DNA of 64,000 nucleotides from Clostridium sp. (GTDB taxonomy: Bacteria; Bacillota; Clostridia; Clostridiales; Clostridiaceae): contig NZ_JAKVOI010000001.1 of assembly GCF_022482905.1 (NCBI RefSeq), forward strand, positions 929,958 through 993,957, given 5' to 3'. Both the position numbers and the translations under genes were made by a program. Position 1 is the first letter of the stretch; each line of letters begins with the position of its first letter. Positions 24,404 through 56,234 of this stretch are shown here, one piece after another. The notes beneath the pieces are model-generated. The model saw only the letters and a list, made by a program, of their open reading frames with translations. It ran no database searches and had not been told where the DNA came from.

Positions 24404-24522
24404 ATGTTGCCTTATAGGGCATTTTTTACGTAATCTTATTGACATCAGTACTACTACGTGTTACTATATAGCAGTAATAAGTAATACTTCATACAAGTCA
24501 TACAAAATAGCAAGAGGTGATT

Positions 24523-25220: not shown

Positions 25221-25573
25221 ATTTTTGGGAAAAGATAACAGGCAGCGACATGACTAAAGAAATGAAAACTTTTGAATTGCGTGCCAAAAAGCTGCCGGAT
25301 GATTACCAAGCGGCATGGGAAAAAATTAATGCTAATCTTTGGCCGCACTCAGATTTCACTGGCCGCAACCTGATGCCGATTCTTGACAGTGTACTCGGTT
25401 TTCTCGAAGAAGCAGCGGTGGACGGTGAGAGTGTTCAGGAGGTTTTGGGTGACGATATCAAAGGCTTCTGTTCAGCGCTGGCCGGTGAAGAAGGGGCAAA
25501 ATCTTATCGCGACAAGTGGCGTCAGCAGCTCAACAATAATGTTGCCAGGAAATTAAGTAGATTAGATAAATAG
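25217..25573 (+). CDS. DUF1048-like protein, paralogue 2
   Basis: 118 aa with the same pattern (LPDDYQAAWEKINANLW...GESVQEVLGDDIKGFCSAL). ATGA overlap with the previous gene. Confidence 0.7.
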   Translation: MNFWEKITGSDMTKEMKTFELRAKKLPDDYQAAWEKINANLWPHSDFTGRNLMPILDSVLGFLEEAAVDGESVQEVLGDDIKGFCSALAGEEGAKSYRDKWRQQLNNNVARKLSRLDK

Positions 25574-25582
25574 GAGGATGAA

Positions 25583-25933
25583 ATGAGAATACAGGATATC
25601 ATCGAAGGCAAAAAAGAGTGGCGGGCGCACATGGCACGTGTCAAAGCGCTCCCGCAGGATTATCAGATTGTTTATAAAGAGATTCAAAAATATCTCTTTA
25701 AGGTCGGCGTTGTTGAGCTAACCGACGTGATGGGTTTGCTCTCGGGGATTATGGATCTTTTTGAAGAGGGCGCATCCTCGGGGAAAAACGTGCTCGAAGT
25801 GACGGGCCGTGACGTAGCGGCTTTTTGCGACGATCTGATTAAAGATTCAAAAACTTACGTTGACATCTATCAGGAATCTGTTGATCAGGAAGTTAGCAAG
25901 GCTATGAAAAAAGTTATGGATAAAACAAAGTGA
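25583..25933 (+). CDS. DUF1048-like protein, paralogue 3
   Basis: 116 aa. KEWRAHMARVKALPQDYQIVYKEIQKY...LFEEGASSGKNVLEVTGRDVAAFCDDL. AGGAGGA RBS. Confidence 0.7.
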   Translation: MRIQDIIEGKKEWRAHMARVKALPQDYQIVYKEIQKYLFKVGVVELTDVMGLLSGIMDLFEEGASSGKNVLEVTGRDVAAFCDDLIKDSKTYVDIYQESVDQEVSKAMKKVMDKTK

Positions 25934-28579: not shown

Positions 28580-29371
28580 ATGAATTATAGCATTAAACAA
28601 ATAATAAAAGAAGCTGCGGAGAAACTCATTTTGCAGAAAGGATTCAAAGATACTACAATTAAGGAGATTTCAAAAAGTGCAAAGATATCTGTAGGTACTA
28701 TATATCGCTATTATAAAAATAAGGAAGAAATCCTCAATGATATAGGAAGAATGGATTTAAAGTATGTATCTTATTCTCAGGACAGTAAGCGAAAGGAAAT
28801 AATGGATGTTGCCCTTGATGTCTTTGGAACAAGAGGATACGCTAGAACAAATATGGAAGATATAGCTAATAAGGTAGGTATGTCAAAAGCTTTCATTTAT
28901 CAATACTTTAACAATAAACATGAACTATTTATTTCCACAATTAGAGAATTCTCACAAGTACAGACCATTTTTGATCTGCATGAAGTTAATAAGGATCATA
29001 TAGATGTAGAAAAAATTTTAACGCAAATCGGAACGATACTTCTTTCTATATTCAAGAATCCGCAAAAATTGAAACTGATGAGGATTATTATTGCAGAAAC
29101 TCACAATTTCCCGGAAATAGGAGAACTCTTTTTTTGCCAGGTGGTTGAAAAAATTGCAAAAGATTTAAGTGAGATATTAAAATCTTATATTTATGGAGAT
29201 ATAGATCCTGTGCTGTCAATTAAATTTTTTGTTGGGGCTATTTGGTCATTAGTCTTTTTACAAGAAATGCTGCCGCTGGAAGATAGAAATTATGATGATG
29301 AAGCTATTGTTAAAAATGCTGTGAAAATATTTCAGTATGGAGCTTTGAAGTATAATGTTAATCTTTCATAA
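28580..29371 (+). CDS. TetR-family regulator with two tandem TetR_N HTH domains
   Basis: HTH 1 is IIKEAAEKLILQKGFKDTTIKEISKSAKISVGTIYRYYKNKEEIL. HTH 2 is EIMDVALDVFGTRGYARTNMEDIANKVGMSKAFIYQYFNNKHELF. A single C-terminal effector domain of about 150 aa follows. Confidence 0.8.
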   Translation: MNYSIKQIIKEAAEKLILQKGFKDTTIKEISKSAKISVGTIYRYYKNKEEILNDIGRMDLKYVSYSQDSKRKEIMDVALDVFGTRGYARTNMEDIANKVGMSKAFIYQYFNNKHELFISTIREFSQVQTIFDLHEVNKDHIDVEKILTQIGTILLSIFKNPQKLKLMRIIIAETHNFPEIGELFFCQVVEKIAKDLSEILKSYIYGDIDPVLSIKFFVGAIWSLVFLQEMLPLEDRNYDDEAIVKNAVKIFQYGALKYNVNLS

Positions 29372-29397
29372 ATAATATTTTATGAGGAGGGACTTTT

Positions 29398-30780
29398 ATG
29401 AAAATAAAAGATAATTTAGAGAAAATTACCAAACAGACTATTGTAAATAAAATTGTTGGTTACCTTGATAAAAACCCGGAAGAAAACATAGATAAAATTT
29501 TTAAGGGTATTAAAATGCTGACTAAAGATGAATCTGCATTGGCCCAAATTGAATTTGTTGAGAATTATTATAACAATGATAAATACAAACATGAATATAT
29601 TCAGGATATTTTAAAAAATACAGATACTAAATGTCTCAAAAAATTTTTTTCATGTTTTTTTGCAAATGCAAACTGGTTTGCCGGACCAAAAAGGCAGAAA
29701 TATATGGAGGAAGAGGATACTAAAATACCATTTGTCATGCTTTTAAGCCCATCCATGAGATGTTCACTTCACTGCAAGGGATGTTATGCTTCAAGTTTTA
29801 GCAAAAAGGATGACATTCCACCGGAAGAAGTTGACAGAATTATAGGAGAGGCAAGAGATCTTGGAATTTATTACATTATTATTTTAGGTGGAGAACCTTT
29901 CTTCAATGACTATCTTCTGGACATTTATGAGAAATATGATGATATAATGTTTACACCATTTACTAGCGGACTTTTTCTTGATGAAAAAATTGCAGACAGA
30001 CTTAAGAAAAGCGGCAATGTGATACCTATGCTTTCAATTGAAGGTTTCGAAAAGGATACTGATGAACGTAGAGGAAAAGGCACATATAAAAAGGTATTGA
30101 AAGCCATGGATATACTCCATGAGAGAGGAATACTGTTCGGAGTGTCTTCGGCTGTTACGAGGACTAATATAAATACGGTGCTCAGTGATGAATTTACAGA
30201 TATGTTGATTGAAAAAGGTTCTAAAATGAGCTGGTACTTTTTATTCATGCCAGTGAATGGTGAAGATGAAGATTTTGATATGATGCTTACAGGAGAACAG
30301 CGGGATTATCTTGGACGAAGATCCAGGGAAATGAGAGCTAATAAACCATATTTTACCCTTGACTTCTTCAATGATGCTCCGTATGTTGGAGGGTGCATTG
30401 CAGGTAAATACTTCTTCCATGTCAACTCTAAAGAAGATGTCGAGCCATGCATATTTTCACATTTTTCAACTGTTAATTTGAAAGGCAGACATTTGATAGA
30501 GGCATTCAGGGATCCATTCTTTAAGAAATTAAGATCCATGCAGCCTTATAATAAAAACATGTTGAGGCCGTGCAGCATGATAGACAATACCAATGTGATA
30601 ATAAATGTATGCAAGGAAGTAGGGGCTAAGCCGGACGATGCCGGAGCAGAGAAAATGCTTCATGATCCTGAATTTCACGAAAAGATAATGAAGTCATCGA
30701 AAGAATTTGCACCATATGCTGAAAAAACCTGGAAAGAATTTTTTAAAGAGAGTGGTAATGACAAGTTTGCCAAAGGATAA
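29398..30780 (+). CDS. radical SAM enzyme with N-terminal extension and C-terminal Cys-rich (SPASM/twitch-like) region
   Basis: CSLHCKGCY gives the CxxxCxxC motif, GGEPF is the SAM-binding motif, and the C-terminal cysteines are in GGCIAG, EPCIFSHF, RPCSMID and NVCKE. Confidence 0.8.
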   Translation: MKIKDNLEKITKQTIVNKIVGYLDKNPEENIDKIFKGIKMLTKDESALAQIEFVENYYNNDKYKHEYIQDILKNTDTKCLKKFFSCFFANANWFAGPKRQKYMEEEDTKIPFVMLLSPSMRCSLHCKGCYASSFSKKDDIPPEEVDRIIGEARDLGIYYIIILGGEPFFNDYLLDIYEKYDDIMFTPFTSGLFLDEKIADRLKKSGNVIPMLSIEGFEKDTDERRGKGTYKKVLKAMDILHERGILFGVSSAVTRTNINTVLSDEFTDMLIEKGSKMSWYFLFMPVNGEDEDFDMMLTGEQRDYLGRRSREMRANKPYFTLDFFNDAPYVGGCIAGKYFFHVNSKEDVEPCIFSHFSTVNLKGRHLIEAFRDPFFKKLRSMQPYNKNMLRPCSMIDNTNVIINVCKEVGAKPDDAGAEKMLHDPEFHEKIMKSSKEFAPYAEKTWKEFFKESGNDKFAKG

Positions 30781-33832: not shown

Positions 33833-34459
33833 GTGAGTTTTTTGGAGAAATTTTTAAGTCTACCCATAGACAAGCAGGATATAATTGTCAATGCTGCTCT
33901 TAAATGTTTTGGCACTAACGGTTACAAAAAAACTTCCATTAGCGATATTGCCGCTGCGGCGGGGATTTCAAAAGCGTTGATATTTCATTACTTTGGCACA
34001 AAAAAAGCTTTATATTTATATCTGATTGATCTATGCACCCGTACTATCATGAATGAAATTGATAAAAAGTTTGATAATAGCATTACTGATTTCTTTGATA
34101 GAATTGAACTTACAACCAGCATTGAAATTTCGGTTATGAAAAAACACCCTGCCATTCTCTCCTTTTTAGACAGTGTGTATTTTGAAAATGCTGACGAAGT
34201 TAAAGAGGACATAAAGGCTATTTTGGAAAATAGTGAAAGTGAAAGCTTTAGAAGCAAAATTGTTTTTGAAGGCATTGATACCTCAAAATTCAAGGATGAC
34301 GTTGATCCAAAGCTGGTCATGAAAATACTTACCTTGCTTACTGATGGGTATTTAAGTAAAATGCCTAAAACAGGGATTGATCTTGATGCTTTATGTGAAG
34401 AATTCGGTGAGTATATAAATCTGTTCAAAAGAAATTTTTACAAGGAGAAATACCTATAA
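33833..34459 (+). CDS. TetR/AcrR-family transcriptional regulator
   Basis: IIVNAALKCFGTNGYKKTSISDIAAAAGISKALIFHYFGTKKALY. Start is GTG 33833 or TTG 33842. Confidence 0.85.
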   Translation: MSFLEKFLSLPIDKQDIIVNAALKCFGTNGYKKTSISDIAAAAGISKALIFHYFGTKKALYLYLIDLCTRTIMNEIDKKFDNSITDFFDRIELTTSIEISVMKKHPAILSFLDSVYFENADEVKEDIKAILENSESESFRSKIVFEGIDTSKFKDDVDPKLVMKILTLLTDGYLSKMPKTGIDLDALCEEFGEYINLFKRNFYKEKYL

Positions 34460-34527
34460 CGTGTATTTGATCTACCTGAAACGGTTTATTGATATATGCT
34501 ATGTGTAAAATAGAAGGGAGAATATGT

Positions 34528-37179
34528 ATGAATTCATATGTACTTGGCTTTCAGGAAATCGATAAAACCAGGCCTGCACTGGTAGGAGGCAAAGGTGCCA
34601 ACCTGGGGAAACTGTCCAGAATTGATGGGATACGAGTGCCGGAGGGATTTTGCGTTACCACTGAAGCCTATAGAGAAATTATTGGGAACAACAGAGAATT
34701 TAATTTACTGCTGGATCAGTTGTCCATCCTGAAAGCGGACAACGTGGAAGGTATTGGTAAAATCAGTGCCAAAATCCGCAAGGTCATAGAAGCAATCGCT
34801 ATTCCTGATGCCATAGATAATGAGATTACCCGACATCTTGTACGGCTTGGTGAAAAAAATGCTTATGCCGTGCGATCCAGTGCTACGGCAGAGGATCTGC
34901 CTACGGCATCCTTTGCGGGCCAGCAGGATACGTATTTGAACATTATCGGAAAGGAAGCCATACTCAGATACATCAGCAAGTGCTGGGCATCGCTGTTTAC
35001 CGAGCGAGCCGTAATCTACCGCATCCAGAACGGTTTTGACCACCGCAAGGTCTATCTGTCCGTTGTTATCCAGAAGATGGTTTTTCCGGAGGCTGCAGGA
35101 ATCATGTTTACTGCAGATCCTATTACGATGAACAGGAAGGTTATATCTATCGACGCGAGCTTCGGGCTGGGCGAAGCCCTGGTCTCCGGCCTGGTAAATG
35201 CAGACAACTACAAGGTGCGTGATGGTGAAATCATTAATAAGAAGATCTCCACAAAGAAGCTGGCGATCCATGGACTAAAAGAAGGCGGTACGGAGGAGAA
35301 AAAGATCAATGCCGAATGTCAGAATAAGCAGACGCTGACGGATGAGCAGATTCTGGAACTTGAAAAAACAGGAAGACGGATAGAGACATATTTTGGCGGT
35401 CCCCAGGATATCGAATGGTGTCTGTATGAAAATAAATTTTTTATCGTTCAAAGTCGTCCAATAACCACTCTTTACCCAATACCGGATGTGCAGGATGGGA
35501 AAAACCATGTGTATATGTCTATGGGTCATCAGCAGATGATGACCGATGTTATGAAACCACTGGGGTTATCATTTTTTCAGTTGGAGTTTAAAGAAAAGTC
35601 TGAGGACAATCAGAATGAAAACACCTTTATTGAAGCCGGCGGCAGACTTTTTATCGATATTTCCTATGATATAAATTCTCCTCTGAGACGAAAAATAGTG
35701 CTCACTGCCATGAAAAAAATCGATCCTCTCATACTCGATGCTATAAAAAATTTGATGAAGCGAAAGAATTTTATGAGATCATTGGCACGGGGCGGCAAGA
35801 GATACTTCAATATGGGTTCAGGGTATTTTTCCTGGGAGCTGCTCCGTTATATTATCAAGATATCCCGAAGCAATGATGCATCTGTAGTTAAAACCTTAAT
35901 GCTGCAAAATGAGGCATCCATCAGAAAGCTGCAGAAAAGAATTGAAAATTTGTCCGGAGACAAACTGTTTTCCTCAATTGAAGAAGAGCAAAAGCAATTG
36001 AAAAAAGCCATGTATGATTCAGAAAGCATGGCAGCAGTCTATGCGGGGGTGCTGGCGCTGAATTGGATTAATAAGAATATGGAGAAGTGGCTGGGTGAAA
36101 AAAACGCGGCAGACTCACTTTCCAAATCGGCACCCAACAACGTTACATCTGAAATGGGGCTGGAACTGCTGGACGTGGCAGATGTGGTTCGGCAATATCC
36201 GGAAGTGCTGGAGTATTTGGAGCACGCCAGTGATGAAACTTTTTTTGAGGATCTATCCAAGTTGGAAGGAGGCAGTGCTGTCAGCAAATCCATAGGGGCG
36301 TATCTTGAAAAATACGGTATGCGCTGTCCGGGTGAGATCGATATCACAAGACCCCGTTTCAGTGAAAAACCCACTGCCCTCGTTCCTATGATTCTAAACA
36401 ATATTAAAAACTTTGATCCGGGTGCCCATAAAGTCCTTTTTGAGCAGGGGATGCTGGAAGCAAAACGGAGGGAACAGGATCTCTTAAAACGTCTGGAACA
36501 GCTGCCCGGTGGAAAACAAAAGGCCAAAAAGACCAGGAAGAAGATCAGCCTCCTGCGCAATTTTATCGGCTATCGTGAATACCCCAAGTATCTGATGATC
36601 TGCCATTACTGGGTTATAAAACAGGCCCTGATGAAGGAGGCTGTGAGGCTTGTGCAGAAGGAGGTTATCCGGCAGAAAGAGGATATCTACTATCTGACCT
36701 TTGAGGAACTTAGGCAGGTAGTCCATACAGATCAGCTGGATTACAGCATCATAAGGTCTCGAAAAGAGGAATGCAAGACCTATGAAAAATTGACACCTTC
36801 CCGTATAATGACCTCGGAAGGAGAGGCTTTATCCGGCGAGTATGATACCGGAAGCATTCCTGAAGGTGCTCTGGCAGGTATACCTGCTTCCTCAGGGACA
36901 ATTGAAGGCCGGGCACGGGTGGTTTTAAGAATGGAGGATGCCGCCCTGGAGGAAGGCGATATTTTGGTCACAGCATTTACTGACCCAAGCTGGACACCGG
37001 TTTTTGTGTCCATTAAAGGCTTGGTGACGGAAGTAGGAGGGATGATGACTCACGGTTCTGTAATTGCAAGAGAATACGGCCTGCCTGCAGTTGTAGGCGT
37101 GGAAAATGCCACCAGGCTGATTAAGGACGGACAAAAAATTCGAGTGAATGGAACGGAAGGATATATAGAGATACTATAA
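34528..37179 (+). CDS. PEP-utilising enzyme of the phosphoenolpyruvate synthase-like / rifampicin phosphotransferase (Rph) architecture, copy 1
   Basis: About 880 aa. N-terminal ATP-grasp/PPDK_N region (VGGKGANLG, VRSSATAEDLPTASFAGQQDTYLN, QDIEWC). C-terminal swivel phosphohistidine domain (DPSWTPVF...GGMMTHGSVIAREYGLPAVVG). The ATG at 34528 follows AAGGGAG. Confidence 0.8.
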   Translation: MNSYVLGFQEIDKTRPALVGGKGANLGKLSRIDGIRVPEGFCVTTEAYREIIGNNREFNLLLDQLSILKADNVEGIGKISAKIRKVIEAIAIPDAIDNEITRHLVRLGEKNAYAVRSSATAEDLPTASFAGQQDTYLNIIGKEAILRYISKCWASLFTERAVIYRIQNGFDHRKVYLSVVIQKMVFPEAAGIMFTADPITMNRKVISIDASFGLGEALVSGLVNADNYKVRDGEIINKKISTKKLAIHGLKEGGTEEKKINAECQNKQTLTDEQILELEKTGRRIETYFGGPQDIEWCLYENKFFIVQSRPITTLYPIPDVQDGKNHVYMSMGHQQMMTDVMKPLGLSFFQLEFKEKSEDNQNENTFIEAGGRLFIDISYDINSPLRRKIVLTAMKKIDPLILDAIKNLMKRKNFMRSLARGGKRYFNMGSGYFSWELLRYIIKISRSNDASVVKTLMLQNEASIRKLQKRIENLSGDKLFSSIEEEQKQLKKAMYDSESMAAVYAGVLALNWINKNMEKWLGEKNAADSLSKSAPNNVTSEMGLELLDVADVVRQYPEVLEYLEHASDETFFEDLSKLEGGSAVSKSIGAYLEKYGMRCPGEIDITRPRFSEKPTALVPMILNNIKNFDPGAHKVLFEQGMLEAKRREQDLLKRLEQLPGGKQKAKKTRKKISLLRNFIGYREYPKYLMICHYWVIKQALMKEAVRLVQKEVIRQKEDIYYLTFEELRQVVHTDQLDYSIIRSRKEECKTYEKLTPSRIMTSEGEALSGEYDTGSIPEGALAGIPASSGTIEGRARVVLRMEDAALEEGDILVTAFTDPSWTPVFVSIKGLVTEVGGMMTHGSVIAREYGLPAVVGVENATRLIKDGQKIRVNGTEGYIEIL

Positions 37180-37198
37180 AGTACTGAATATGATTGTG

Positions 37199-37777
37199 CT
37201 ATTTCCCCAAGAGACCATATAGAAATAACATTGTAAGATTTTCTTTATATTTTACGCTTTTTTTATAGTAATCAGGTTGGTGCATAATAGATGCAGATGC
37301 AAGAAGAAATGCAAGAAGTGCTTCATCTGAAAGAGATGGGTCGATCGCTCCGGCCTTTTTTCCTACTTGTATGAATTTCAGATAGATAGATTGTGCTTGA
37401 ATTGAGGCTGCTTCTTTGTAAATTTGCATCAATACTTTATCTTCCAAGGCTTGATGACTAAAATTAGAATGACTCAATTCTAAAATGGCGTTGTGTTTTT
37501 TCAACATGATTTGTTCTAGCTTCTTAGAAAAGGGAATATTTCTGTCCAACAACTCATCATATTCTCGAACGATTTGTCCAATATAGGAAATAAATGCTTC
37601 TCTCGCAAGATTGTTTTTATCTCCAAAATAATTATAAATCGATACCTGTGAAACACCTGCTTTTGTAGAAATTTCATTTATGCTTACATCTGTTATCCCC
37701 CGCTCTATAAAGAGTTTAGTAGCAATTTGAAGAATAGAATTTTTCTTGCGGTTTGTTCTTTTTTCATATCCATTCAT
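37199..37777 (-). CDS. TetR/AcrR-family transcriptional regulator
   Basis: ILQIATKLFIERGITDVSINEISTKAGVSQVSIYNYFGDKNNL. The ATG at 37777 follows GGGTGA, so the track start at 37861 is rejected. Confidence 0.85.
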   Translation of the reverse strand: MNGYEKRTNRKKNSILQIATKLFIERGITDVSINEISTKAGVSQVSIYNYFGDKNNLAREAFISYIGQIVREYDELLDRNIPFSKKLEQIMLKKHNAILELSHSNFSHQALEDKVLMQIYKEAASIQAQSIYLKFIQVGKKAGAIDPSLSDEALLAFLLASASIMHQPDYYKKSVKYKENLTMLFLYGLLGK

Positions 37778-37841
37778 AATTATATCACCCACTATTATTA
37801 TAACATTATTTTGAAATTTATCAAATAAAATTTCAAAACAG

Positions 37842-37872
37842 TTGACAGTCATCTCACACAAGTGTATTGTGT
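37842..37872 (+). promoter_or_regulatory. TTGACA box plus inverted repeat ACACAA-GTGTA-TTGTGT in the divergent tetR / rph-like-2 intergenic region
   Basis: Inverted repeat at 37856-37872. Its half-site ACACAA resembles the ACACAATT half-site at 33764. Confidence 0.4.
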
Positions 37873-37917
37873 AATATACAAGTTAATATTTCAAAACTTT
37901 ATATGGAGGGATGAAAA

Positions 37918-40539
37918 GTGCATTCGTATATTATCAGATTTACTGACATAGATAAAACAGATTTACTGAAGGTTGGTGGTAAAGGATTAAATTTGGGAAT
38001 GTTATCAAAAATTTCTGAAATTCGAGTACCGGAAGGATTTTGTATTACTACAGAAGTTTTTCAAGAAACTCTGGCGAATAATCTGGAATTTGAGTTGTTG
38101 TTGGAAGATTTGAAAAAGCTAAAGGCTACTCAACGGAAACGAATCTCAGAAATCAGTGGAAAAATACGGTCTGTAATTCAAAAAGTTCAATTGCCTGGGG
38201 ACATTGAATATGAAATTGTAAAGGAACTTTCTAATTATGACAAGCAGACAGCTTTTGCAGTGCGTTCCAGCGCAACAGCGGAGGATCTCCCAAATGCATC
38301 TTTTGCGGGGCAGCAGGACACTTATCTCAATATAAAGGATCCACAGGAAATTCTGCGATATGTAATCAGATGTTGGTCATCTCTTTTTACAGATCGTGCT
38401 GTGATATATCGAATTCAGAATGGGTTTGATCATTGCAGGGTTTCTCTTTCCGTTGTTGTCCAAAAAATGATTTTTTCTGAGGCTTCCGGAATTGTATTTA
38501 CCGCCGATCCACTTACTTCAGACCGGAGCACTCTTTCTGTTGATGCGGGATTCGGGCTGGGAGAAGCGATGGTATCCGGACTTACAAATCCGGATATTTA
38601 TAAAATACGAGGGGGAAAAATTATTTCAAAGAAGATCAGAAGACAAGACTTGGAAATTTGTCTTGCGGAAAACGGAGGCATACAGAAAAAGCAGGTTGAT
38701 ACAGACAGGCAGGAAAAGCAGATATTGTCCGATGATCAAATTTTACAGTTGGCTTGTATCGGAAAAAAAATAGAATCTCATTTTGGATGTCCTCAGGATA
38801 TTGAATGGTGTTTTTACAAAAATGAGTTTTATATCGTCCAGAGTCGAAATATCACAACTCTTTTTCCCATTCCAGTATCCATGGATGCACGAAAGCCCAG
38901 GGTATATATGTCGATTGGGCATATTCAGATGATGACGGATATAATACGTCCGCTTGGTATGTCATTTTTTCAAATGATCTCGGAAATCTCACTGACAGAA
39001 GCCGGAGGCAGGTTTTATGCTGATATTACACACGATTTGTCTTCTCCGATTGGGCGTAAGAGATTGGTTATGGCGACTGGTAAGCAGGATTTGTTGATAC
39101 AGGGAGCAATCAAGCAGCTTTTGGAACAAAAAGAGTTTATGCATTCCCTTCCAAAAGGGAAAAGAAACGTAAAAGGGGGAATTTTTACTCCTGCTTCTAT
39201 TTTAGAAACAATGAAAATCAGTCGAAAAAATGATCCTGAGATAATCAATGAATTGATCGGAAAATTTAATTCTGAGCTAAACAAAATATATCATCAGTTG
39301 TCAAAGCTTTCTGGGAAAGCGGCCTTGGATTTTATAAAGAATGATCGGGGCTCGCTGCTGGCAATGGCGTATAATCCCAAGATGTTGGGAGCGATCATTG
39401 CTGCGATTCTGGCAAGCGATTCCATTAATAAAAATGTGGAAGCCTGGATTGGTGAAAAAAACACAGCAAATTTGCTGTCAAAATCTTTGAAAAATAATAT
39501 CACCACGGAAATGGGACTCGCACTATGTAATTTGGCCGACAGGATTCGAGAACATCCTCAGGTGTTGCAATATTTGTCTAAAAATCCCACAAATGACGAT
39601 TTTTTTGAAAAAATGTGTCTGCTTCCGGGAGGAAAAATCGTTGAAGAAGAATTTAGAAACTTCTTGCTTAAGTATGGGATGCGCTGCCCCGGAGAGATTG
39701 ATATTACTAGACCTCGTTTTGAAGAAAAACCCACACAGTTGCTGCCTATGCTGTTAAACGATATTCGCATTTTAAAACTTGGTGAACACAAAACCAGATT
39801 TTCAAATGGTAAAATAGAGGCAAAGAAGAAAGAAGAAGAACTCCTACACCGTCTGGTGGAATTACCAAACGGCAAAAGAAAAGCGAAAAAGGTGAAGAAA
39901 GACATTCGATTGATGCGTAATTTTATTGGATACCGTGAATATCCAAAGTATTGCATTGTCCGACGCTATCAAATTTATAAAAGAGCGCTGCAAAAAGAAG
40001 CAGATAGATTGGTTGAAAAAGGAGTGCTGCGTGCTCGCGATGATATTTTTTATCTGTATTTTGACGAGCTGTACAAAGTAGTTGAGACAGGCCAGGTTGA
40101 CTACTCAGCGATTGACAAGAGAAGGCAAGATTATGTCCACTTTGAAAGGCTGAATCCTCCACGTGTGATTACCTCCGACGGTTTTGTTCCATCTCCAGAT
40201 TTTTCAACAGAAAAAATTCCTTCAGATGCCCTTATGGGTATTCCGGTATCCTCCGGTGTTATAGAAGGACGTGCACGCGTTGCTTTGTCCGTAGAGGAAG
40301 TGGAACTGGAGGCAGGTGATATTTTGGTAACACGATTTACCGATCCAAGCTGGACTCCGCTCTTTACAACAATAAAAGGGCTAATTACCGAGGTAGGTGG
40401 CTTTACAACACATGGTGCGGTTGTTGCCAGAGAATACGGCCTGCCTGCAGTTGTAGGTGTGGAAAACGCTGTAAGTTTGATTAAAGACGGACAGAGAATT
40501 CGGGTAAACGGGACGGAAGGTTATGTAGAAATACTATAA
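37918..40539 (+). CDS. PEP-utilising enzyme, Rph-like architecture, copy 2
   Basis: 873 aa and collinear with copy 1: VGGKGLNLG, VRSSATAEDLPNASFAGQQDTYLN, QDIEWC, GGFTTHGAVVAREYGLPAVVG. GTG start after GGAGGG. Confidence 0.8.
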   Translation: MHSYIIRFTDIDKTDLLKVGGKGLNLGMLSKISEIRVPEGFCITTEVFQETLANNLEFELLLEDLKKLKATQRKRISEISGKIRSVIQKVQLPGDIEYEIVKELSNYDKQTAFAVRSSATAEDLPNASFAGQQDTYLNIKDPQEILRYVIRCWSSLFTDRAVIYRIQNGFDHCRVSLSVVVQKMIFSEASGIVFTADPLTSDRSTLSVDAGFGLGEAMVSGLTNPDIYKIRGGKIISKKIRRQDLEICLAENGGIQKKQVDTDRQEKQILSDDQILQLACIGKKIESHFGCPQDIEWCFYKNEFYIVQSRNITTLFPIPVSMDARKPRVYMSIGHIQMMTDIIRPLGMSFFQMISEISLTEAGGRFYADITHDLSSPIGRKRLVMATGKQDLLIQGAIKQLLEQKEFMHSLPKGKRNVKGGIFTPASILETMKISRKNDPEIINELIGKFNSELNKIYHQLSKLSGKAALDFIKNDRGSLLAMAYNPKMLGAIIAAILASDSINKNVEAWIGEKNTANLLSKSLKNNITTEMGLALCNLADRIREHPQVLQYLSKNPTNDDFFEKMCLLPGGKIVEEEFRNFLLKYGMRCPGEIDITRPRFEEKPTQLLPMLLNDIRILKLGEHKTRFSNGKIEAKKKEEELLHRLVELPNGKRKAKKVKKDIRLMRNFIGYREYPKYCIVRRYQIYKRALQKEADRLVEKGVLRARDDIFYLYFDELYKVVETGQVDYSAIDKRRQDYVHFERLNPPRVITSDGFVPSPDFSTEKIPSDALMGIPVSSGVIEGRARVALSVEEVELEAGDILVTRFTDPSWTPLFTTIKGLITEVGGFTTHGAVVAREYGLPAVVGVENAVSLIKDGQRIRVNGTEGYVEIL

Positions 40540-40545
40540 GGAGGA

Positions 40546-40586
40546 AATGAGTATGGATTGCGTGAAAAAACACATCCATACTCATT
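40546..40586. terminator. 13-bp-stem hairpin between the convergent rph-like-2 and nifK-like genes
   Basis: AATGAGTATGGAT (40546-40558) pairs with ATCCATACTCATT (40574-40586). Confidence 0.55.
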
Positions 40587-40632
40587 GTGGTATCAAAATT
40601 TCAATTTGAAAAACAGTTTTTAATTTATTAGT

Positions 40633-41991
40633 CTATATAGATATGGCATTAACTCTTTGATTGAAATCCTTATTACTTAAAATGGAAGAGTAAATTTCTT
40701 CAATAAGATTTAATCCTCCAGTATAACCAATATAAGTTCTATTTACAATTAGCTTATCTAAAATTGGATTACTTATATAAACTATTGGTGCATTTAAATC
40801 TTCGGATAACTTATCCTCCCAGGTGCTTCCTAAAATGAGAGTTTTTCTAGGAATATTTACATCATTTCTTATTGCTTTTTCTATAATTCCTCCATCATTT
40901 TCAAAAAATACCTTTTCTTTATATTCCTTATGAATATCTTCAAATATTTTATTAATGTTATTTTTATGTTTTTCCTGAATATTATCTATTAAAAAAGCAC
41001 CCTTGGGAACATACCCCAATTCATTGATCAGAAAGTTGCTGGTACCTATTGCATAAGCAGAATCAGCAATAGTATACAACTCAAATGGTAATCCGGCTCT
41101 TCCTTCAGCTATAAAATCACCAATATCTAAAAAATATTTATAAAATGAAAATTCCTCTTCCTTTATTACTTGTTCAACCCTATCTTTATCAAGGTTTGCA
41201 AACTCTCCCACAGTTCTTAAAAATTTGCTGGTTGCAGCCGCTCCAACAGGTAATTCTTGATAATGAAGAAATTTAGTTCCGAATTTTCTTTCAAGGAGTT
41301 CCGCAGCCTTTAATCCAACCCATGGGTTTAACACTAAATTAAATTCTGCATTGGGGATATCTTTCCATTCTTCAACACCTTTACTTTCATAACCAAAAAG
41401 TATATTTACTTCTAAGCCTATGGCAGTTAAAATTCTTTTTATTTCCTTTAAATCGCCTCTCCAGAATGGATTTTGATTTGGAACAACTGAAAATACATTT
41501 ACCAATCCCTTTCTAACGTTTGGCTCGGCATCACCTATATATTGTTCAATTATACTTTTTATAACAAGCTCATGACCTACGTAGTTACTTCCTTTAAAAC
41601 CCGCTGTTTCTGCATTAATGATCGGTTTGCCCTGCTTTTGGTATTTATTGACTATGGACGTAACATCATCTCCAACTATATCTGCAGTACATCCTGTCAG
41701 AACTACAAATAAATTACCCTTAAGTACCTTTAATGCACCATCAATTGTTTGATCAAGTTTCTTTTCTCCACCAAAAACTATATCCTTTTCCGATGAATTT
41801 GTACAAGGTATGTGGGTTCCTCCGACATCACTTTCCCCTTGATATCCTGCTGATGTTGTTAAAGCCAATGAAACCTTGTTGCTGCAGCCAGGTCCACAGT
41901 GTAGAACCGGTACAGCTCCTCTTATTGCCAGAACTGTATGCTGTGCTCCTATTGCACAAGTGTATCTTGGCTGTTCAATTACGTTACTCAA
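40633..41991 (-). CDS. nitrogenase component 1-type oxidoreductase, NifK/NifN-like beta subunit
   Basis: By-eye alignment to NifK. YTCAIGA, VLHCGPGC and VVLTGCTADIVGDD match the regions of the three P-cluster Cys ligands. EKDIVFGG and TAGFKGSNYVGH blocks are present. Confidence 0.75.
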   Translation of the reverse strand: MSNVIEQPRYTCAIGAQHTVLAIRGAVPVLHCGPGCSNKVSLALTTSAGYQGESDVGGTHIPCTNSSEKDIVFGGEKKLDQTIDGALKVLKGNLFVVLTGCTADIVGDDVTSIVNKYQKQGKPIINAETAGFKGSNYVGHELVIKSIIEQYIGDAEPNVRKGLVNVFSVVPNQNPFWRGDLKEIKRILTAIGLEVNILFGYESKGVEEWKDIPNAEFNLVLNPWVGLKAAELLERKFGTKFLHYQELPVGAAATSKFLRTVGEFANLDKDRVEQVIKEEEFSFYKYFLDIGDFIAEGRAGLPFELYTIADSAYAIGTSNFLINELGYVPKGAFLIDNIQEKHKNNINKIFEDIHKEYKEKVFFENDGGIIEKAIRNDVNIPRKTLILGSTWEDKLSEDLNAPIVYISNPILDKLIVNRTYIGYTGGLNLIEEIYSSILSNKDFNQRVNAISI

Positions 41992-43456
41992 GTCTTTTCC
42001 CTCCTTTTGTAAATATAAATGGGTTTTGATTTAACCACCAGTCCGTATATGGTGACTCAAAATGTTTAGCTAATGTTTCAACATATTTTCGTGTCCTTAT
42101 TGACTCATAAATTTTTTCGCCTAAGGCAATTACTCCATCATAACCTATTATCATGTTTGGATCAGCTAAATGAAAAGCTGGAATACCTAATTTATTGATT
42201 ACTACTGCAATACCTGGATGCCTTGCAAGTACAAAATCAGGTTTGAATTTCTTTAATATATTTGTAAATTGATAAGGCTGTTTATTAGTTACACAATAAT
42301 TTTGAATATTTCCAATATGCTTTAACATGTTTCCTACTGTATTAATTTCCTGATAATCATTATCATAAGCTTGATCATGATGGAAAGCTACCGTTCCTAT
42401 TACTTCAAGTCCTAAGGAATTAGCAACACTTACGTAGCTTTGAACAATGGCGTCCCCAGCCATAATATATATTTTTTTCCCTTTTAATTTTGATCTGAGA
42501 TTCTCCAATTTTGGCTTGATTTTAGCATGTTCTTCCTTTATTACTTCCTCAACTCTTTCAACTTTATTTGTCAATCTCCCTAGTTCTCTTAACCATTCAT
42601 CAGTCCATTTTATACCTGTTGGAGCTGGTGCTTTAATCTCAGGTACATCAAATTCACTTTCTAAAGCTGCTGCCACATATGAAGCAAGAGTTTCGCATAT
42701 GTTTGCCGTTGCCACTGCATCTGATATATTCTCAATTTCTTCAATGGTTGAAAATGGGAATATATATCTTGGTTTTAAATCAAGCTTTCTTAGTAAATCA
42801 TCAAATACATGAGCTCCCTGAAAATTAATGATATTTATATAATTGGTCTTCTTACTGGACTTCTTCACTATTTTTCTCAATATTGCATGCCCGGATGCAT
42901 CAAAACCAGTTGTCCAAACTTTAGATTTAAATCCTTCACAATAAACAGGTACAACATTAATACCCGTTTCTTTGCTTAAGGTATCTGTTAAACTTTCTAA
43001 ATCTTCTCCGATAATTCCTGAAGCACAGGAGGCAGTTATAAATACTACCTTCGGATTAAATCTTTCTTTTGCAAGCAGCACAGCTTCTTTTAATTTAGCT
43101 GCTCCACCATATATAGTGTCCTTTTCTTCAAGATTTGTACTTATAGCTTTAAAATTTCCAATATCTATTCCTCTCAAAGCGGCCCCTCTTCTAATATTAT
43201 TTTGTGCCGTAGCAAAATCTGATGCACAGCCGATTGGTGCATGATTTATAACTACAGAGCCAATAATATTTGATACAATTCCAAAAGCACAGGAGGATGA
43301 ACAAGCTCCACACTGGCTGAAGCTTCTTTCCTGCGGTTTTATACTACGATTTAAAGATTTTTCATAAATATCCTGTGCAGAGCCATTATAAGATATAATC
43401 GCCCCTAATCGCTTATCTCTTATTTTTAGTTCTGCTAATTTTAGGTTTATTGCCAT
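41984..43456 (-). CDS. nitrogenase component 1-type oxidoreductase, NifD/NifE-like alpha subunit
   Basis: By-eye alignment to NifD. QCGACSSSC...INHAPIGC, EKDTIYGG and FITASCASGIIGEDLES match the P-cluster ligand regions. VVPVYCEGF is present. ANICETLASY aligns with the Cys275 region and GIPAFHLADP with the His442 region. There is an 8-nt overlap with the downstream beta-like gene. Confidence 0.75.
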   Translation of the reverse strand: MAINLKLAELKIRDKRLGAIISYNGSAQDIYEKSLNRSIKPQERSFSQCGACSSSCAFGIVSNIIGSVVINHAPIGCASDFATAQNNIRRGAALRGIDIGNFKAISTNLEEKDTIYGGAAKLKEAVLLAKERFNPKVVFITASCASGIIGEDLESLTDTLSKETGINVVPVYCEGFKSKVWTTGFDASGHAILRKIVKKSSKKTNYINIINFQGAHVFDDLLRKLDLKPRYIFPFSTIEEIENISDAVATANICETLASYVAAALESEFDVPEIKAPAPTGIKWTDEWLRELGRLTNKVERVEEVIKEEHAKIKPKLENLRSKLKGKKIYIMAGDAIVQSYVSVANSLGLEVIGTVAFHHDQAYDNDYQEINTVGNMLKHIGNIQNYCVTNKQPYQFTNILKKFKPDFVLARHPGIAVVINKLGIPAFHLADPNMIIGYDGVIALGEKIYESIRTRKYVETLAKHFESPYTDWWLNQNPFIFTKGGKRLE

Positions 43457-43507
43457 TTAAATCACCTCTTTATTTTTTTGATTAAATATATTTAATCCTT
43501 TATATGC

Positions 43508-43548
43508 AAAAAAGGAGCACAAAATTCAATAAAGAATATTTGTCCTCC
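43508..43548 (-). terminator. intrinsic terminator inside the 5' leader of the nitrogenase-like operon (candidate attenuator)
   Basis: On the minus strand the sequence reads GGAGGACAAA - 15-nt loop - TTTGTGCTCC followed by TTTTTT. Nine of ten stem pairs form. It sits about 50 nt upstream of the start codon and about 100 nt downstream of the predicted promoter. Confidence 0.55.
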
Positions 43549-43654
43549 GGTTTTCCAGTTAGAAAATAGCTATTTTTATATTTTTAAGTGATATAACTAT
43601 GCAGTGAGCTGCTAATTTATATCCATATTTGCATATATAATTCATGTAATTTTA

Positions 43655-43683
43655 AGTATATAGAATTATTTATCTATTGTCAA
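43655..43683 (-). promoter_or_regulatory. sigma-A-type promoter TTGACA-17-TATACT for the nitrogenase-like operon
   Basis: On the minus strand, TTGACA is at 43683-43678 and TATACT at 43660-43655, with a 17-nt spacer. Confidence 0.4.
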
Positions 43684-43842
43684 TAATTTTGAATTTAGAT
43701 TATATCATATTTAATACAATTTTTATATTGTTAATTTTATCTTTATACTATCTTCATTAAAAATCGGTTATAATAAAATACGAAGTAGGTAATCCATTTT
43801 TTACCTATGACCAATCATATGAAGTTATTAGGGGGTTGATGC

Positions 43843-44331
43843 ATGAAAGTTGTTCCTAAACATACAAATACCAGGGACTTTTGTCCTGATGATAGAAAGT
43901 TCAAATACAAAGGAGAAAAAAATATTATATTTTTATTAACTGCTAAGGCATCTGTTGCATTTCTGAATGATCGTTGTACTTTGAGACAGGGACTTGAAAA
44001 AATGAGATGCCATGGATATACGGCACTGCCTGTAATTGCTGAAGACGGAACTTATGTTGGAACGGTGAGTGAAGGAGATTTTTTATGGCATATGATGGAC
44101 AGCAATATGTATTCTATGAAATCACAGGAGGAATATTTGATTTCCGATATACTTCGAAAAGGCTGGAATCCTGCGGTAAAAATTGATGCAACCATGGATG
44201 AGCTTCTCCTGCGCATTATGGACCAGAATTTTGTCCCGGTGATTGATGACCGGGAAAAGTTCATAGGGATTATAACACGAAAAGATGTAATAAAGTATTA
44301 TTATGAATTTGTTGAAAACAAATGTGAATAA
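43843..44331 (+). CDS. CBS-pair domain protein
   Basis: Two CBS motifs (ALPVIAEDGTYVGTVSEGDFL and FVPVIDDREKFIGIITRKDVI). GGGGG RBS. Confidence 0.75.
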   Translation: MKVVPKHTNTRDFCPDDRKFKYKGEKNIIFLLTAKASVAFLNDRCTLRQGLEKMRCHGYTALPVIAEDGTYVGTVSEGDFLWHMMDSNMYSMKSQEEYLISDILRKGWNPAVKIDATMDELLLRIMDQNFVPVIDDREKFIGIITRKDVIKYYYEFVENKCE

Positions 44332-54867: not shown

Positions 54868-54975
54868 AATCTTATCAAGAGTGGTGGAGGGACTGGCCCT
54901 TTGAAACCCGACAACCAACATTTGTACATGAATGTATGGTGTCAATTCCAGCAGAATATTCTGAGAGATAAGAAA
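54868..54975 (+). promoter_or_regulatory. SAM-I (S-box) riboswitch aptamer
   Basis: CTTATCAAGAGTGGTGGAGGGACTGGCCCTTTGAAACCCGACAACC...GGTGTCAATTCCAGCAGAATATTCTGAGAGATAAG matches the S-box consensus, including the P1 pairing CTTATC/GATAAG. Confidence 0.92.
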
Positions 54976-54991
54976 AATATTTTATGAAATT

Positions 54992-55025
54992 AAAGTTGTT
55001 TTTCTTATGGAAGACAACTTTTTTA
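54992..55025 (+). terminator. S-box expression-platform terminator
   Basis: AAAGTTGT (54992-54999) pairs with ACAACTTT (55014-55021), with further inner pairs, followed by a T-run. Confidence 0.65.
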
Positions 55026-55061
55026 ATGCAAATATTTATTAAATTTATGGGGAGGAAATAT

Positions 55062-56234
55062 ATGACAAAAGAAACTAGCTTTATAACAAAATGTGTACAT
55101 GTAGGTAATGGTGTTGATAAAGAAACTGGTGCTATAAGGCGGCCTATAACCATGGCAAATTGCTATAGACTTCCAGAAGATGCATCATCGATTAACTGGA
55201 GTGATCCGAACCAGATGCTTTATACAAGAAATACTTCTGCAAATCAGCTCTATCTTCAGCAGAGACTGGCTGCATTGGAGGGCGGTGAAGATTGTGTGGT
55301 ACTGGCAAGTGGAGTTGCAGCACTTGCAGGAGTGTTTTTCACATTTCTTGAAAGCAAAGCCCATGTAATATGTTCAAATGTCTCATATATAGCGGTTTAC
55401 AGACTGCTTAACCAATATCTCCCAGATAAGTATGGAGTAGAAGCAACACTTGTAGATACATCCAATCTGGAAGAGATAAAAAAGGCAATAAGACCTAATA
55501 CGAAGCTTATTCATGTGGAGACACCGGGAAATCCAACTACAAAAATAAGCGATATTGCAGAAATAGCCAAAATTGCCAGGTCCATTGGAGCATTGTTTAG
55601 TGTGGACAGTACATTTGCATCTCCGTATCTGCAGCATCCTCTTGAACTTGGAGCCGACCTGGTGGTTCATAGCCTGACAAAGTACATAAATGGACATGGT
55701 GATGCCATGGGTGGAGCGGTAATAGGAAAAAAGGAACTTATAGACAAAATAAAAGGCCAGGCTATGGTCAATCTTGGAGGTACGATAAGTCCATTCAATG
55801 CATGGCTTATAATGAGAGGGGTTGTGACACTGCCTCTTCGTATGAAGCAGCACAGCGATACGGCACTCAAGGTTGCACAGTATCTGGAATCAAATCCATC
55901 TGTGAAATTTGTTGCATATCCAGGCCTTGAAAGTCATCCCCAGCATGAAATTGCCAAAAAGCAGATGAGGATGTATTCAGGAGTCATAGCTTTTGCACTT
56001 AAGGCAGACAGCGAGACTCACAATAAATTTATAAATGCACTTGAACTGGTTGTCCCGGCAGTTTCCCTTGGACATGATGAAAGTCTTATTGTATATACAG
56101 GCCCAAATGATGAAAGAATAAATTTCTATCCTGAAATATTCAGAGACGGATATATAAGATTCAGCATAGGACTTGAAAGTGCAGAGGATATTATTTATGA
56201 TTTAAAACAGGCACTTGAAAAATGCGGACTGTGA
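55062..56234 (+). CDS. Cys/Met-metabolism PLP-dependent enzyme (cystathionine gamma-synthase / beta-lyase / methionine gamma-lyase family)
   Basis: PLP-lysine motif SLTKYINGHGD, plus YTRNTSANQ and VETPGNPT. The ATG at 55062 follows GGGGAGG. The track start at 54984 lies inside the riboswitch terminator. Confidence 0.85.
   Translation: MTKETSFITKCVHVGNGVDKETGAIRRPITMANCYRLPEDASSINWSDPNQMLYTRNTSANQLYLQQRLAALEGGEDCVVLASGVAALAGVFFTFLESKAHVICSNVSYIAVYRLLNQYLPDKYGVEATLVDTSNLEEIKKAIRPNTKLIHVETPGNPTTKISDIAEIAKIARSIGALFSVDSTFASPYLQHPLELGADLVVHSLTKYINGHGDAMGGAVIGKKELIDKIKGQAMVNLGGTISPFNAWLIMRGVVTLPLRMKQHSDTALKVAQYLESNPSVKFVAYPGLESHPQHEIAKKQMRMYSGVIAFALKADSETHNKFINALELVVPAVSLGHDESLIVYTGPNDERINFYPEIFRDGYIRFSIGLESAEDIIYDLKQALEKCGL

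Follow-up and report, generated by a model that had tools for sequence, protein, structure and literature searches.

A nitrogenase-like DK gene pair of a Clostridium related to methylthio-alkane reductase and Nfa and isolated from partner genes

Nitrogenase-like enzymes that hold real nitrogenase clusters and use them for other chemistry are a current frontier, and the Mar (methylthio-alkane reductase) structure dates from 2025. Group IV nitrogenase-like (NFL) DK pairs with nitrogenase-type clusters form an already documented class, often multicopy and often without an Fe-protein gene (H) of their own (PMC3464626; PMC9147875; PMC13474568; bioRxiv 10.64898/2026.08.20.746119), and this literature has already reported Mar homologs in Bacillota. 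It includes pairs that possess the equivalent of NifD Cys275 and lack that of His442, observed by Dos Santos et al. in 2012 (PMC3464626) to occur together with genes for O-acetylhomoserine sulfhydrylase or cysteine synthase, as well as NflDK1 of Heliophilum fasciatum, which has been grouped with NfaDK of Endomicrobium proavitum in Group IV-A (PMC9147875). Assigning functions to the uncharacterized NFL clades is described as the main challenge of the field in a 2026 Chemical Reviews article (PMC13474568). The subject here is an nflDK-type pair found in a 64,000-nucleotide stretch of a Clostridium sp. genome (assembly GCF_022482905.1, contig NZ_JAKVOI010000001.1, positions 929,958 to 993,957), termed the window. 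The pair adds no new class and its existence will not surprise a specialist; its unusual feature is the degree of its isolation, and it is a minimal example: beside this fully liganded DK, on which purifying selection acts, neither an Fe protein nor NifB, NifX, a transporter or a sulfur enzyme was found.

The genes for the alpha subunit (D) and beta subunit (K) are listed in Table 1. Their open reading frames (ORFs) overlap by 8 nt, the K start is preceded 8 nt upstream by an AAGGAGG Shine-Dalgarno sequence, and K orthologs share both the TTG start and the overlap. The initial annotation had described two coupled NifD/E- and NifK/N-like ORFs and a Group IV-type enzyme, and both parts of that description are borne out, the pair being neither NifDK nor NifEN. 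Both subunits belong over their full length to the nitrogenase component 1 superfamily (Pfam PF00148, Oxidored_nitro; cut-off 28.6 bits), D with E = 2.6e-75 (254 bits, profile positions 1-398 of 399) and K with E = 1.3e-67 (229 bits, positions 3-398 of 399). Neither comes near any NCBIfam equivalog cut-off for NifD, NifK, NifE, NifN, Vnf, Anf, Bch or CfbD. The best score for D is with the "nitrogenase alpha" subfamily TIGR01862 (180 bits against a cut-off of 486), followed by nifE (168 against 505); nifD gives 142 against 654, nifK 105 against 427 and nifN 62 against 327, and with the Nif, Vnf and Anf models the pair scores 53-180 bits against cut-offs of 427-874 bits. The BchN/B, BchY/Z and CfbD equivalogs, which represent dark-operative protochlorophyllide oxidoreductase, chlorophyllide oxidoreductase and CfbD (Group V and IV-B), all remain at or below 105 bits against cut-offs of 268-529.

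Comparison with all PDB sequences places the pair closest to Mar, which scavenges sulfur by C-S cleavage and, dependent on ATP and MarH, converts DMS, EMS or MT-EtOH into methanethiol and a hydrocarbon. D matches the MarD chains 9FMG_A and 9D9U_A with E = 2.7e-128 over residues 1-483 (41.6% identity to 9FMG_A), and K matches the MarK chain 9D9U_C with E = 3.1e-125 (46.2% identity), the runner-up for D being a NifD (1.7e-34) and that for K a chain containing NifE (8.8e-20). The NifE match of D reaches E = 1e-19 to 1e-20, compared with 1e-128 for MarD. An AlphaFold2 model of D (pLDDT 80, pTM 0.83) aligns to 9FMG_A with template modeling (TM) scores of 0.86/0.91 and to NifD chains with ∼0.70. Among 185,579 species-representative genomes, the nearest at this locus is Clostridium arbusti SL206 (91% amino acid and 90.7% nucleotide identity), followed by Candidatus Clostridium eludens (81%). 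Measured against four orthologs, dN/dS lies at 0.13-0.18 in D and at 0.09-0.13 in K, which indicates that both genes are under purifying selection.

For phylogenetic placement, 80 genomic loci encoding relatives were collected and each D-type protein was compared with window D and R. rubrum MarD. Firmicute Mar orthologs are 70-79% identical to Rhodospirillum rubrum MarD (69-79% across MarDK) as against 41.6% for window D, some 80 other D-type proteins likewise fall at 40-48%, and the K subunits give the same pattern. A neighbor-joining tree (106 sequences, 488 columns, Kimura distances, 100 bootstraps, K paralogs as outgroup), which covers the clades labeled here W, W1 and W2 without reference sequences for Groups IV-D, IV-E and IV-F, resolves a Mar clade of R. 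rubrum MarD and two Firmicute sequences (bootstrap 100), outside which window D falls. All Mar-related sequences, that is, Mar plus W, are united with a bootstrap of 100; W itself consists of W1 and W2 (80 tips, bootstrap 54), of which W1 has a bootstrap of 57 and W2 one of 85. W2 comprises 40 tips, including window D, C. kluyveri, Butyrivibrio, Kineothrix and Treponema. Within it, window D groups with C. arbusti and Ca. C. eludens (3 tips, bootstrap 100) and, one step out, with a second Ca. C. eludens paralog and two metagenome-assembled genomes (MAGs; L007 and L008; 6 tips, bootstrap 100). In Ca. C. eludens, a true Mar pair, 70% identical to R. rubrum MarD, comes directly downstream of the ortholog of the window pair; because this genome has both side by side, the window-type pair and Mar are distinct paralogs, and this adjacency, together with the split of the clades in the tree, rules out that the pair is simply MarDK.

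The likeness of W1 to Nfa is drawn by proxy, through NflD1 and the E. proavitum cysteine numbering. W1 includes the H. fasciatum protein L063_9992, which is identified as part of NflDK1 because its D-K-H gene order matches IMG genes 2929298242, -243 and -244. The W1 cysteine positions 50, 53, 60, 78, 145 and 255 match those of E. proavitum NfaD at 50, 53, 60, 78, 146 and 257 (PMC13474568); window D has cysteines at 49, 52, 56, 77, 144 and 254, and is 46% identical to NflD1 as against 42% to R. rubrum MarD. With moderate support for the split between W1 and W2, the pair would thus be placed in W2, sister to the Nfa-like clade W1, and both of these sister to Mar.

The ligand and essential residues of MarDK, as compiled in PMC13474568, were mapped onto the window proteins; the MarDK ligands are structurally verified. 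The six P-cluster-type cysteines that the initial annotation had aligned by eye hold in this comparison. Cys52, Cys77 and Cys144 of D (motifs QCGAC, PIGC and TASC) correspond to MarD Cys66, Cys91 and Cys158, and Cys12, Cys36 and Cys101 of K (motifs YTCAIG, HCGPGC and LTGC) to MarK Cys32, Cys56 and Cys121, with an additional K Cys32 at the position of MarK Cys52. The ligands of an L-like cluster are also present: the cysteine of the ANICE motif, rightly equated beforehand with the Cys275 position of NifD, is D Cys254 and aligns with MarD Cys270, and D Arg412-His413 (in ARHPG) align with MarD Arg428-His429. The histidine of AFHLAD, which had been put forward as a possible His442, does not hold that place; it is His429 of D, occurs only in the three closest orthologs, is replaced by F, L, N, M or Q elsewhere, and the invariant histidine is His413. 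In MarD, a histidine on the loop equivalent to the His442 loop of NifD is dispensable (PMC13474568), and an alignment of D with its relatives contains no conserved equivalents of the NifD active-site residues His442 and Gln191/His195. D Trp181 corresponds to MarD Trp195, which is essential for Mar catalysis, and D His359 to MarD His375, which lies near the cluster.

The ligand and essential columns are invariant in 83 relatives (40 W2, 40 W1 and 3 Mar), and the three P-cluster cysteines of D are invariant in 96 D-type sequences, namely these 83 and 13 from a PALP-linked clade Z. The pair therefore carries the signature of Group IV NFL proteins, with six P-cluster cysteines, the equivalents of Cys270 and Arg428-His429 (R. 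rubrum MarD numbering) and no conserved His442 ligand, and the kept ligands predict a [8Fe-7S] P-cluster at the D/K interface and an L-like [Fe8S9C] cluster. The surroundings of the predicted active site are less conserved. The Mar channel and near-cluster positions M70, C73, Y98, I101 and H194 read M/C/Y(N)/I/H in the Mar clade, are C/G/A/N/V in window D and are highly variable across W2; the Mar-type residues W195, F374 and H375 are retained in window D, which accordingly lacks the full Mar-type set (M70, C73, Y98, I101, H194, W195, F374 and H375). Residues of the channel and near the belt sulfur S2B have been proposed as specificity determinants that separate Mar1 and Mar2 of Rhodopseudomonas palustris.

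The genomic surroundings of the family point to sulfur metabolism. Flanking ORFs of all 80 loci were clustered and the recurrent clusters annotated with Pfam, with counts taken over 38 W2 loci. ATP-binding cassette (ABC) transport components (MetN-like ATPase, BPD_transp_1, SBP_bac_3, NlpA/MetQ and NMT1/SsuA-like) occur at 31 of these, a broad homology cluster whose genes abut the DK pair in many loci; a NifX-like gene occurs at 25, cysteine/methionine-type pyridoxal phosphate (PLP) enzymes (Cys_Met_Meta_PP, PALP, Aminotran_1_2 and Aminotran_5) at 21, a NifH-like gene at 15 and an SDH_alpha-family gene at 7. W2 loci thus usually lie amid sulfur amino-acid genes and transporters, which is evidence at the level of the family, as no such neighbor adjoins the window pair; W2 loci devoid of any recurrent neighbor type number two of 38. 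The SDH_alpha-family protein (∼540 aa; serine dehydratase/cysteine desulfidase family) is encoded directly 3' of DK at 7/38 W2 loci and at no W1 locus (listed loci L014, L017, L023, L024, L026, L027, L030 and L043). Firmicute W1 loci (L028, L032, L050, L054, L058, L060, L063 and others) show the arrangement NifX-H-DK-MetNIQ-type ABC-NifX-Cys_Met_Meta_PP-PALP, and this arrangement suggests a mostly sulfur-related, not nitrogen-related, setting in Firmicutes for the clade published as Nfa (Group IV-A).

Fe-protein genes follow the same division. Among loci flanked on either side by 8 kb of sequence or more, a NifH-like gene lies within 10 kb at 5 of 13 in W2 versus 13 of 17 in W1, and where W2 loci have an H gene it often directly adjoins DK. 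W2-linked H proteins are 65-71% identical to Azotobacter vinelandii NifH and 72-82% identical among themselves, while those linked to W1 reach 45-50% identity to NifH and are of Mar/Nfa type; these two NifH-like clades track the DK clades (W2-type H at L007, L008, L015-L018, L027 and L044; W1-type at L028, L050, L058, L063 and L084), with L047 and L071 as exceptions. The closest H-containing relatives of the window pair, L007 and L088, have the co-directional order ABC, DK (W2), permease, SBP, permease, PALP, KD (third clade), H, NifX-like; since a single H follows two pairs there, one H may serve two DK pairs. Similarly, a single NflH has been proposed to serve five NflDK pairs in H. fasciatum, where NflDK2-5 have no H of their own (PMC9147875), and H-less nflDK pairs are known from R. 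rubrum, near marBHDK, and from R. palustris as NflDK3 (PMC13474568; bioRxiv 10.64898/2026.08.20.746119). Given these precedents and the figure of 5 in 13, an unlinked Fe protein is the rule for such pairs, and the initial view that the absence of an adjacent NifH is exceptional does not stand.

At the window locus itself, the reported lack of a NifH-like ORF was confirmed by two routes: no NifH P-loop (GKGGIGKS) or switch II motif occurs in the six frames of the 64-kb window, and tblastn with 11 queries (A. vinelandii NifH and ten NifH-like proteins) found no NifH-like gene in it. The A. vinelandii query was validated by its 39 matches in related loci. The companion claim that nifB, nifV, nifX, Mo/W transport and glnB genes are missing stands as far as the searches reach. 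With 87 NifX-like queries from related loci, tblastn gave no credible match in the window, a single 35-aa hit at 63604-63699 (E = 0.008) being judged spurious, and among 42 window ORFs scanned with Pfam there was no nif-related, Mo/W-transport or PII family, with eight smaller or terminal ORFs unscanned, namely four PII-sized small ORFs at 24517-25933 and four others. The same scans of 42 ORFs, to which the same eight ORFs including the four of PII size are the limit, contain no glnB/nifI, nifA, nifV or Mo-transport gene. For NifB, the sole radical-SAM (S-adenosylmethionine) ORF has no NifB-type domain by Pfam, no dedicated NifB search of the window having been made. The pair hence lacks the marB and marH companions of a marBHDK cluster in the 64-kb window (the NifB side by Pfam only) and equally those of an nfaBHDK cluster, since neither an nfaB-type domain (Pfam only) nor a gene resembling nfaH was found, and the 42 scanned ORFs, to which the four PII-sized ones at 24517-25933 do not belong, include no PII or nif regulator. 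The window extends 40 kb to one side of the pair and 20 kb to the other without partner genes.

The function that we regard as moderately probable, judging from homology, kept ligands and clade context, is that of an organosulfur C-S reductase, a Mar-like reductive C-S lyase with a substrate other than Mar's, an Fe protein encoded elsewhere and a NifB-made cluster. DK would form the catalytic α2β2 component of a Group IV nitrogenase-like reductase related to Mar and Nfa, and would receive electrons one at a time from an ATP-hydrolyzing NifH-type Fe protein encoded outside the 64-kb window. The likeliest donor would be a nifH paralog of this probably diazotrophic Clostridium, because W2-linked H proteins are ∼70% identical to NifH and one H may serve two pairs. 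The active-site cluster would come from a NifB whose gene lies elsewhere in the genome, and reductive C-S cleavage of an organosulfur compound would release a thiol or sulfide for cysteine or methionine synthesis. The substrate is expected to differ from Mar's because the predicted channel residues M70/C73/Y98/I101/H194 are replaced. A promoter of the pair's own would drive expression, with a leader terminator probably acting as a gate in response to some signal.

As background to the proposed donor, diazotrophs of this genus include C. arbusti, C. kluyveri and C. pasteurianum, the last of which has several nifH paralogs. A C. bornimense homolog of the W2-type H is annotated as "Nitrogenase iron protein 4". 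A database search with a W2-type H was uninformative in this respect, as C. arbusti and Ca. C. eludens were absent among the matches listed (at least 120), which were saturated by proteins at least 82% identical to the query, and a literature search on C. arbusti nif genes yielded nothing usable.

Several observations weigh against a C-S reductase supplied by an unlinked Fe protein. In R. rubrum, neither NifH nor AnfH takes the place of MarH in vivo (PMC13474568), so cross-reaction with a generic NifH is not guaranteed, and R. palustris NflDK3, the sole H-less Mar-like pair tested genetically, was inactive on all volatile organosulfur compounds tried. The immediate neighbors (Rph-like/TetR on one side, CBS/kdp on the other) give the window pair no sulfur tie, the closest ortholog, that of C. 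arbusti, also lies amid housekeeping genes, and the sole sulfur element in the window, a SAM riboswitch with a Cys_Met_Meta_PP gene, is 11.5 kb off, behind kdpABCDE, a sigma/anti-sigma pair and ogt. The placement in W2 rests on a moderately supported split (54% for W, 57% for W1) in a neighbor-joining rather than maximum-likelihood tree that has no IV-D, IV-E or IV-F references, and the sister clade W1 contains a pair published as Nfa and linked to N2 fixation.

A more far-reaching proposal, which we consider unlikely, is that W2 constitutes a distinct enzyme class within the Mar/Nfa radiation, in which P-/L-cluster chemistry is applied to a substrate new to nitrogenase-like enzymes and which has no dedicated Fe protein in clostridia of this kind. 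Such a substrate could be a non-volatile, amino-acid-type organosulfur compound, an idea prompted by the amino-acid-type ABC transporters and the SDH_alpha-family and PLP enzyme genes linked to the clade. Electrons could then come through a borrowed canonical NifH paralog or directly from ferredoxin, and the bare cassette with its attenuator-controlled promoter could be the minimal natural form of the system.

The published link of W1 to Nfa also opens the alternative of an Nfa-like (Group IV-A-type) reductase in nitrogen metabolism, an auxiliary enzyme that would use host NifH for weak reduction of N2 or other nitrogen compounds. NflD1, encoded next to the sole NflH, is in W1 and is placed with E. 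proavitum NfaDK in PMC9147875, the W1 cysteine pattern fits the NfaD numbering in PMC13474568, window D is slightly closer to NflD1 than to R. rubrum MarD, and W2-type Fe proteins are the more NifH-like of the two types. We nevertheless judge this role improbable: W2 is a separate clade (bootstrap 85) with C56 in place of C60, it shares with W1 an overwhelming association with Met/Cys transporters and PLP enzymes, the NifD residues His442 and Gln191/His195 are absent, no nitrogen regulator or Mo-transport gene was found in the 42 scanned ORFs (eight unscanned), and N2 fixation has been questioned as the primary role of Nfa itself in a review (PMC13474568).

The layout in Ca. C. eludens bears on whether the pair is a catalyst at all. 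There, the ortholog of the window pair and the Mar pair stand in a four-gene arrangement that recalls nifDK-nifEN, and in C. arbusti and the Logan contig L086 the gene after the pair is that of a NifX-like cluster carrier, so that a NifEN-like protein that serves as scaffold, carrier or store of an L-like cluster for other nitrogenase or nitrogenase-like proteins can be envisaged, as Dos Santos et al. did for linked pairs (PMC3464626). This too is improbable. A Mar-clade pair lies within 10 kb at only 3 of 80 loci, W2 is therefore no dedicated Mar maturase, and the Mar cluster is assembled without NifEN or a nearby NflDK (PMC13474568). The channel positions diversify within W2 as expected of enzymes with different substrates and not of a scaffold, and the pair keeps six P-cluster cysteines and the catalytically essential tryptophan, unlike the simpler [4Fe-4S] site of NifEN. 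The Ca. C. eludens locus (L001/L006, contig JBJHZX010000001) is in itself a 16-kb supercluster headed by a SAM riboswitch, in the order NifX-like, DK (W2 paralog), PALP, KD (third clade), radical SAM (221 aa), methyltransferase, DK (the window's ortholog) and DK (true Mar); the cluster contains five DK pairs, and no NifH-like gene was found in the 21 kb covered.

At eight of the 13 W2 loci that are fully flanked, H is missing within 10 kb, and a 2026 paper (PMC13245594) reports ATP-independent N2 reduction by L-cluster-bound assembly platforms, which together would fit an enzyme that dispenses with the Fe protein and whose DK is reduced directly by a low-potential ferredoxin or flavodoxin. Such independence is nonetheless quite improbable, as 15 of 39 W2 loci carry a dedicated H, often directly adjacent, the type of H and the DK clade segregate together, which speaks for a conserved partnership, and all characterized members of the family require an Fe protein (PMC13474568).

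The two genes form a compact cassette (Table 1). The prediction that they are an operon of their own is supported by a consensus promoter upstream of D, which is the best-scoring site within 40400-43900 and whose TTGACA box is kept in C. arbusti (L005). Homology between the window and C. arbusti is limited to D, K and ∼230 nt upstream of D and ends 16 nt past the K stop; beyond this cassette there is no synteny, the flanks being unrelated. Intergenic DNA around the 56-nt leader core diverges among C. arbusti, L086 and Ca. C. eludens, and the MAG L085, whose protein is 80% identical, has a perfect hairpin of unrelated sequence with a T-run at the same position. From these four or five sequences, taken without covariation statistics, the leader is possibly an attenuator, that is, a leader terminator. 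No Rfam family matches the leader at the gathering threshold or at E up to 10, so that no known riboswitch or T-box was found there, and when the conserved leader was inspected by eye, neither a sigma-54 promoter nor a CymR box gave a convincing match. When 24 related loci were scanned with Rfam, only a SAM riboswitch (L006) and a T-box (L013) turned up near nfl genes; with two hits in 24 loci, RNA leaders of known type are not a general feature of nfl loci. In C. arbusti (L005 4900-5210) and L086, an extra ∼300 nt lies between the leader hairpin and the ribosome-binding site of D, which is not seen in the window or in Ca. C. eludens, and a NifX-like gene follows K in the former two and is not found at the window locus. 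At the other end, the inverted repeat between the convergent stops possibly marks the end of the operon; it was not called by a terminator scan because neither strand has a T-run. That the pair is a partnerless remnant, a horizontally acquired and now silent or non-functional cassette that left its Fe protein, NifB and NifX behind, is very improbable despite the missing synteny with C. arbusti, the absent NifX-like gene and the lack of partner genes within 40 kb upstream and 20 kb downstream, given two intact ORFs with dN/dS of 0.09-0.18 that keep all ligands, a consensus promoter, Shine-Dalgarno sequences and a conserved leader.

Table 1. Coordinates of the DK cassette and of selected other features in the window
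Feature	Coordinates	Strand	Details
nflD-type alpha subunit gene (D)	41984..43456	-	490 aa, ATG start
nflK-type beta subunit gene (K)	40633..41991	-	452 aa, TTG start
Sigma-70-type promoter	43655..43683	-	TTGACA-17 nt-TATACT; 11/12 consensus positions; consensus match only
5' leader	43457..43654	-	∼190 nt; fold -40.8 kcal/mol, z = -3.8 vs shuffled controls
Leader core	43563-43508	-	56 nt; identity of 85-91% with C. arbusti, L086 (Logan contig) and Ca. C. eludens
Terminator-like hairpin	43548-43514	-	13 bp, interrupted; followed by T6 at 43513-43508
Inverted repeat	40546..40586		13-bp stem, 15-nt loop; between convergent stops of K and Rph-like gene; read from sequence
Tandem paralogous PPDK_N/PEP-utilizer genes	33833-40539		rifampicin-phosphotransferase-like, 896 and 873 aa; TetR-family gene before each
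TetR-family gene, then radical-SAM gene	28580-30780	+	TetR-family gene with duplicated helix-turn-helix; 460-aa radical-SAM protein (29398-30780) with no further recognizable domain
SAM-I riboswitch and Cys_Met_Meta_PP gene	54869-56234	+	riboswitch 89 bits, full length, directly upstream of 416-aa gene

The window is AT-rich, with a G+C content of ∼36%, and the genes beside the cassette are unrelated to it, as had been described: on one flank, Pfam identifies two genes of the PPDK_N/PEP-utilizer (Rph-like) type accompanied by TetR genes, and on the other a CBS protein with kdpABC-DE. Other window genes recognized by Pfam include a sigma/anti-sigma pair, ogt, transporters and chemoreceptors. 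The 416-aa Cys_Met_Meta_PP enzyme behind the SAM-I riboswitch could be of the O-acetylhomoserine sulfhydrylase or gamma-lyase type, which would use methanethiol of the kind released in the Mar pathway; a functional tie to the DK pair is not implied.

The initial annotation had presented the pair as a candidate for undescribed enzymology. The finding survives, in that the pair does not fall inside the NifDK or NifEN clades and the alignment of its cysteine ligands stands; its novelty is narrowed by a documented class, a close characterized relative in MarDK (E ∼1e-128) and a large family in sulfur contexts. Small as it is, the pair offers a natural test case for the sharing of Fe proteins and for the assignment of a substrate to its clade. 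Were its partner a housekeeping NifH paralog, some of the unlinked "pseudo-nifH" genes of clostridia would gain a role, and nitrogen fixation would engage in cross-talk with sulfur scavenging. The sulfur context of W1 bears, in addition, on what Nfa does.

Compared with known systems, the pair has in common with NifDK, VnfDK and AnfDK the Pfam family, fold, P-cluster cysteines and Cys275 equivalent, and differs from them in its ∼20% identity, in the lack of conserved His442 and Gln191/His195 and in having no nifH, nifE, nifN, nifB or nifV found nearby (NifB by Pfam only). With NifEN it shares the theme of L-cluster binding, although its nifE score is far below the cut-off. NifN, unlike window K, does not have all three P-cluster cysteines, NifEN having a simpler [4Fe-4S] site with fewer ligands. 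The H-less nflDK of R. rubrum and NflDK3 of R. palustris (RPA2363-64) resemble the pair in having no H or B gene of their own and in retaining all ligands; they lie ∼9-20 kb from a marH/marB set and amid sulfur genes, whereas the window pair has none within 40 kb/20 kb, and NflDK3, which is induced by sulfur limitation, is nearer to Mar (52-56% identical to Mar1). Nfa-type pairs (E. proavitum NfaDK and H. fasciatum NflDK1) share the ligand set, a length of ∼490 aa, the lack of the MarD N-terminal insertion and ∼46% identity with the pair; the extra cysteine is at 60 in W1 and at 56 in window D, and W1 usually has a Mar/Nfa-type H right beside DK, while W2 mostly has no H or a more NifH-like one. 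MarDK of R. rubrum (Group IV-C; 9FMG/9D9U) differs from the pair by an identity of 42% (D) and 46% (K), by the place of the latter outside the Mar clade, by its replaced channel residues and by the lack of marH/marB alongside. The likenesses to MarDK comprise homology over the full length, the fold (TM 0.86), the absence of the NifK N-terminal extension, the six P-cluster cysteines and the MarK Cys52 equivalent, the Cys and Arg-His ligands and the Trp195 and His375 equivalents, along with a tie to sulfur assimilation genes that, at the level of the family, is common to both.

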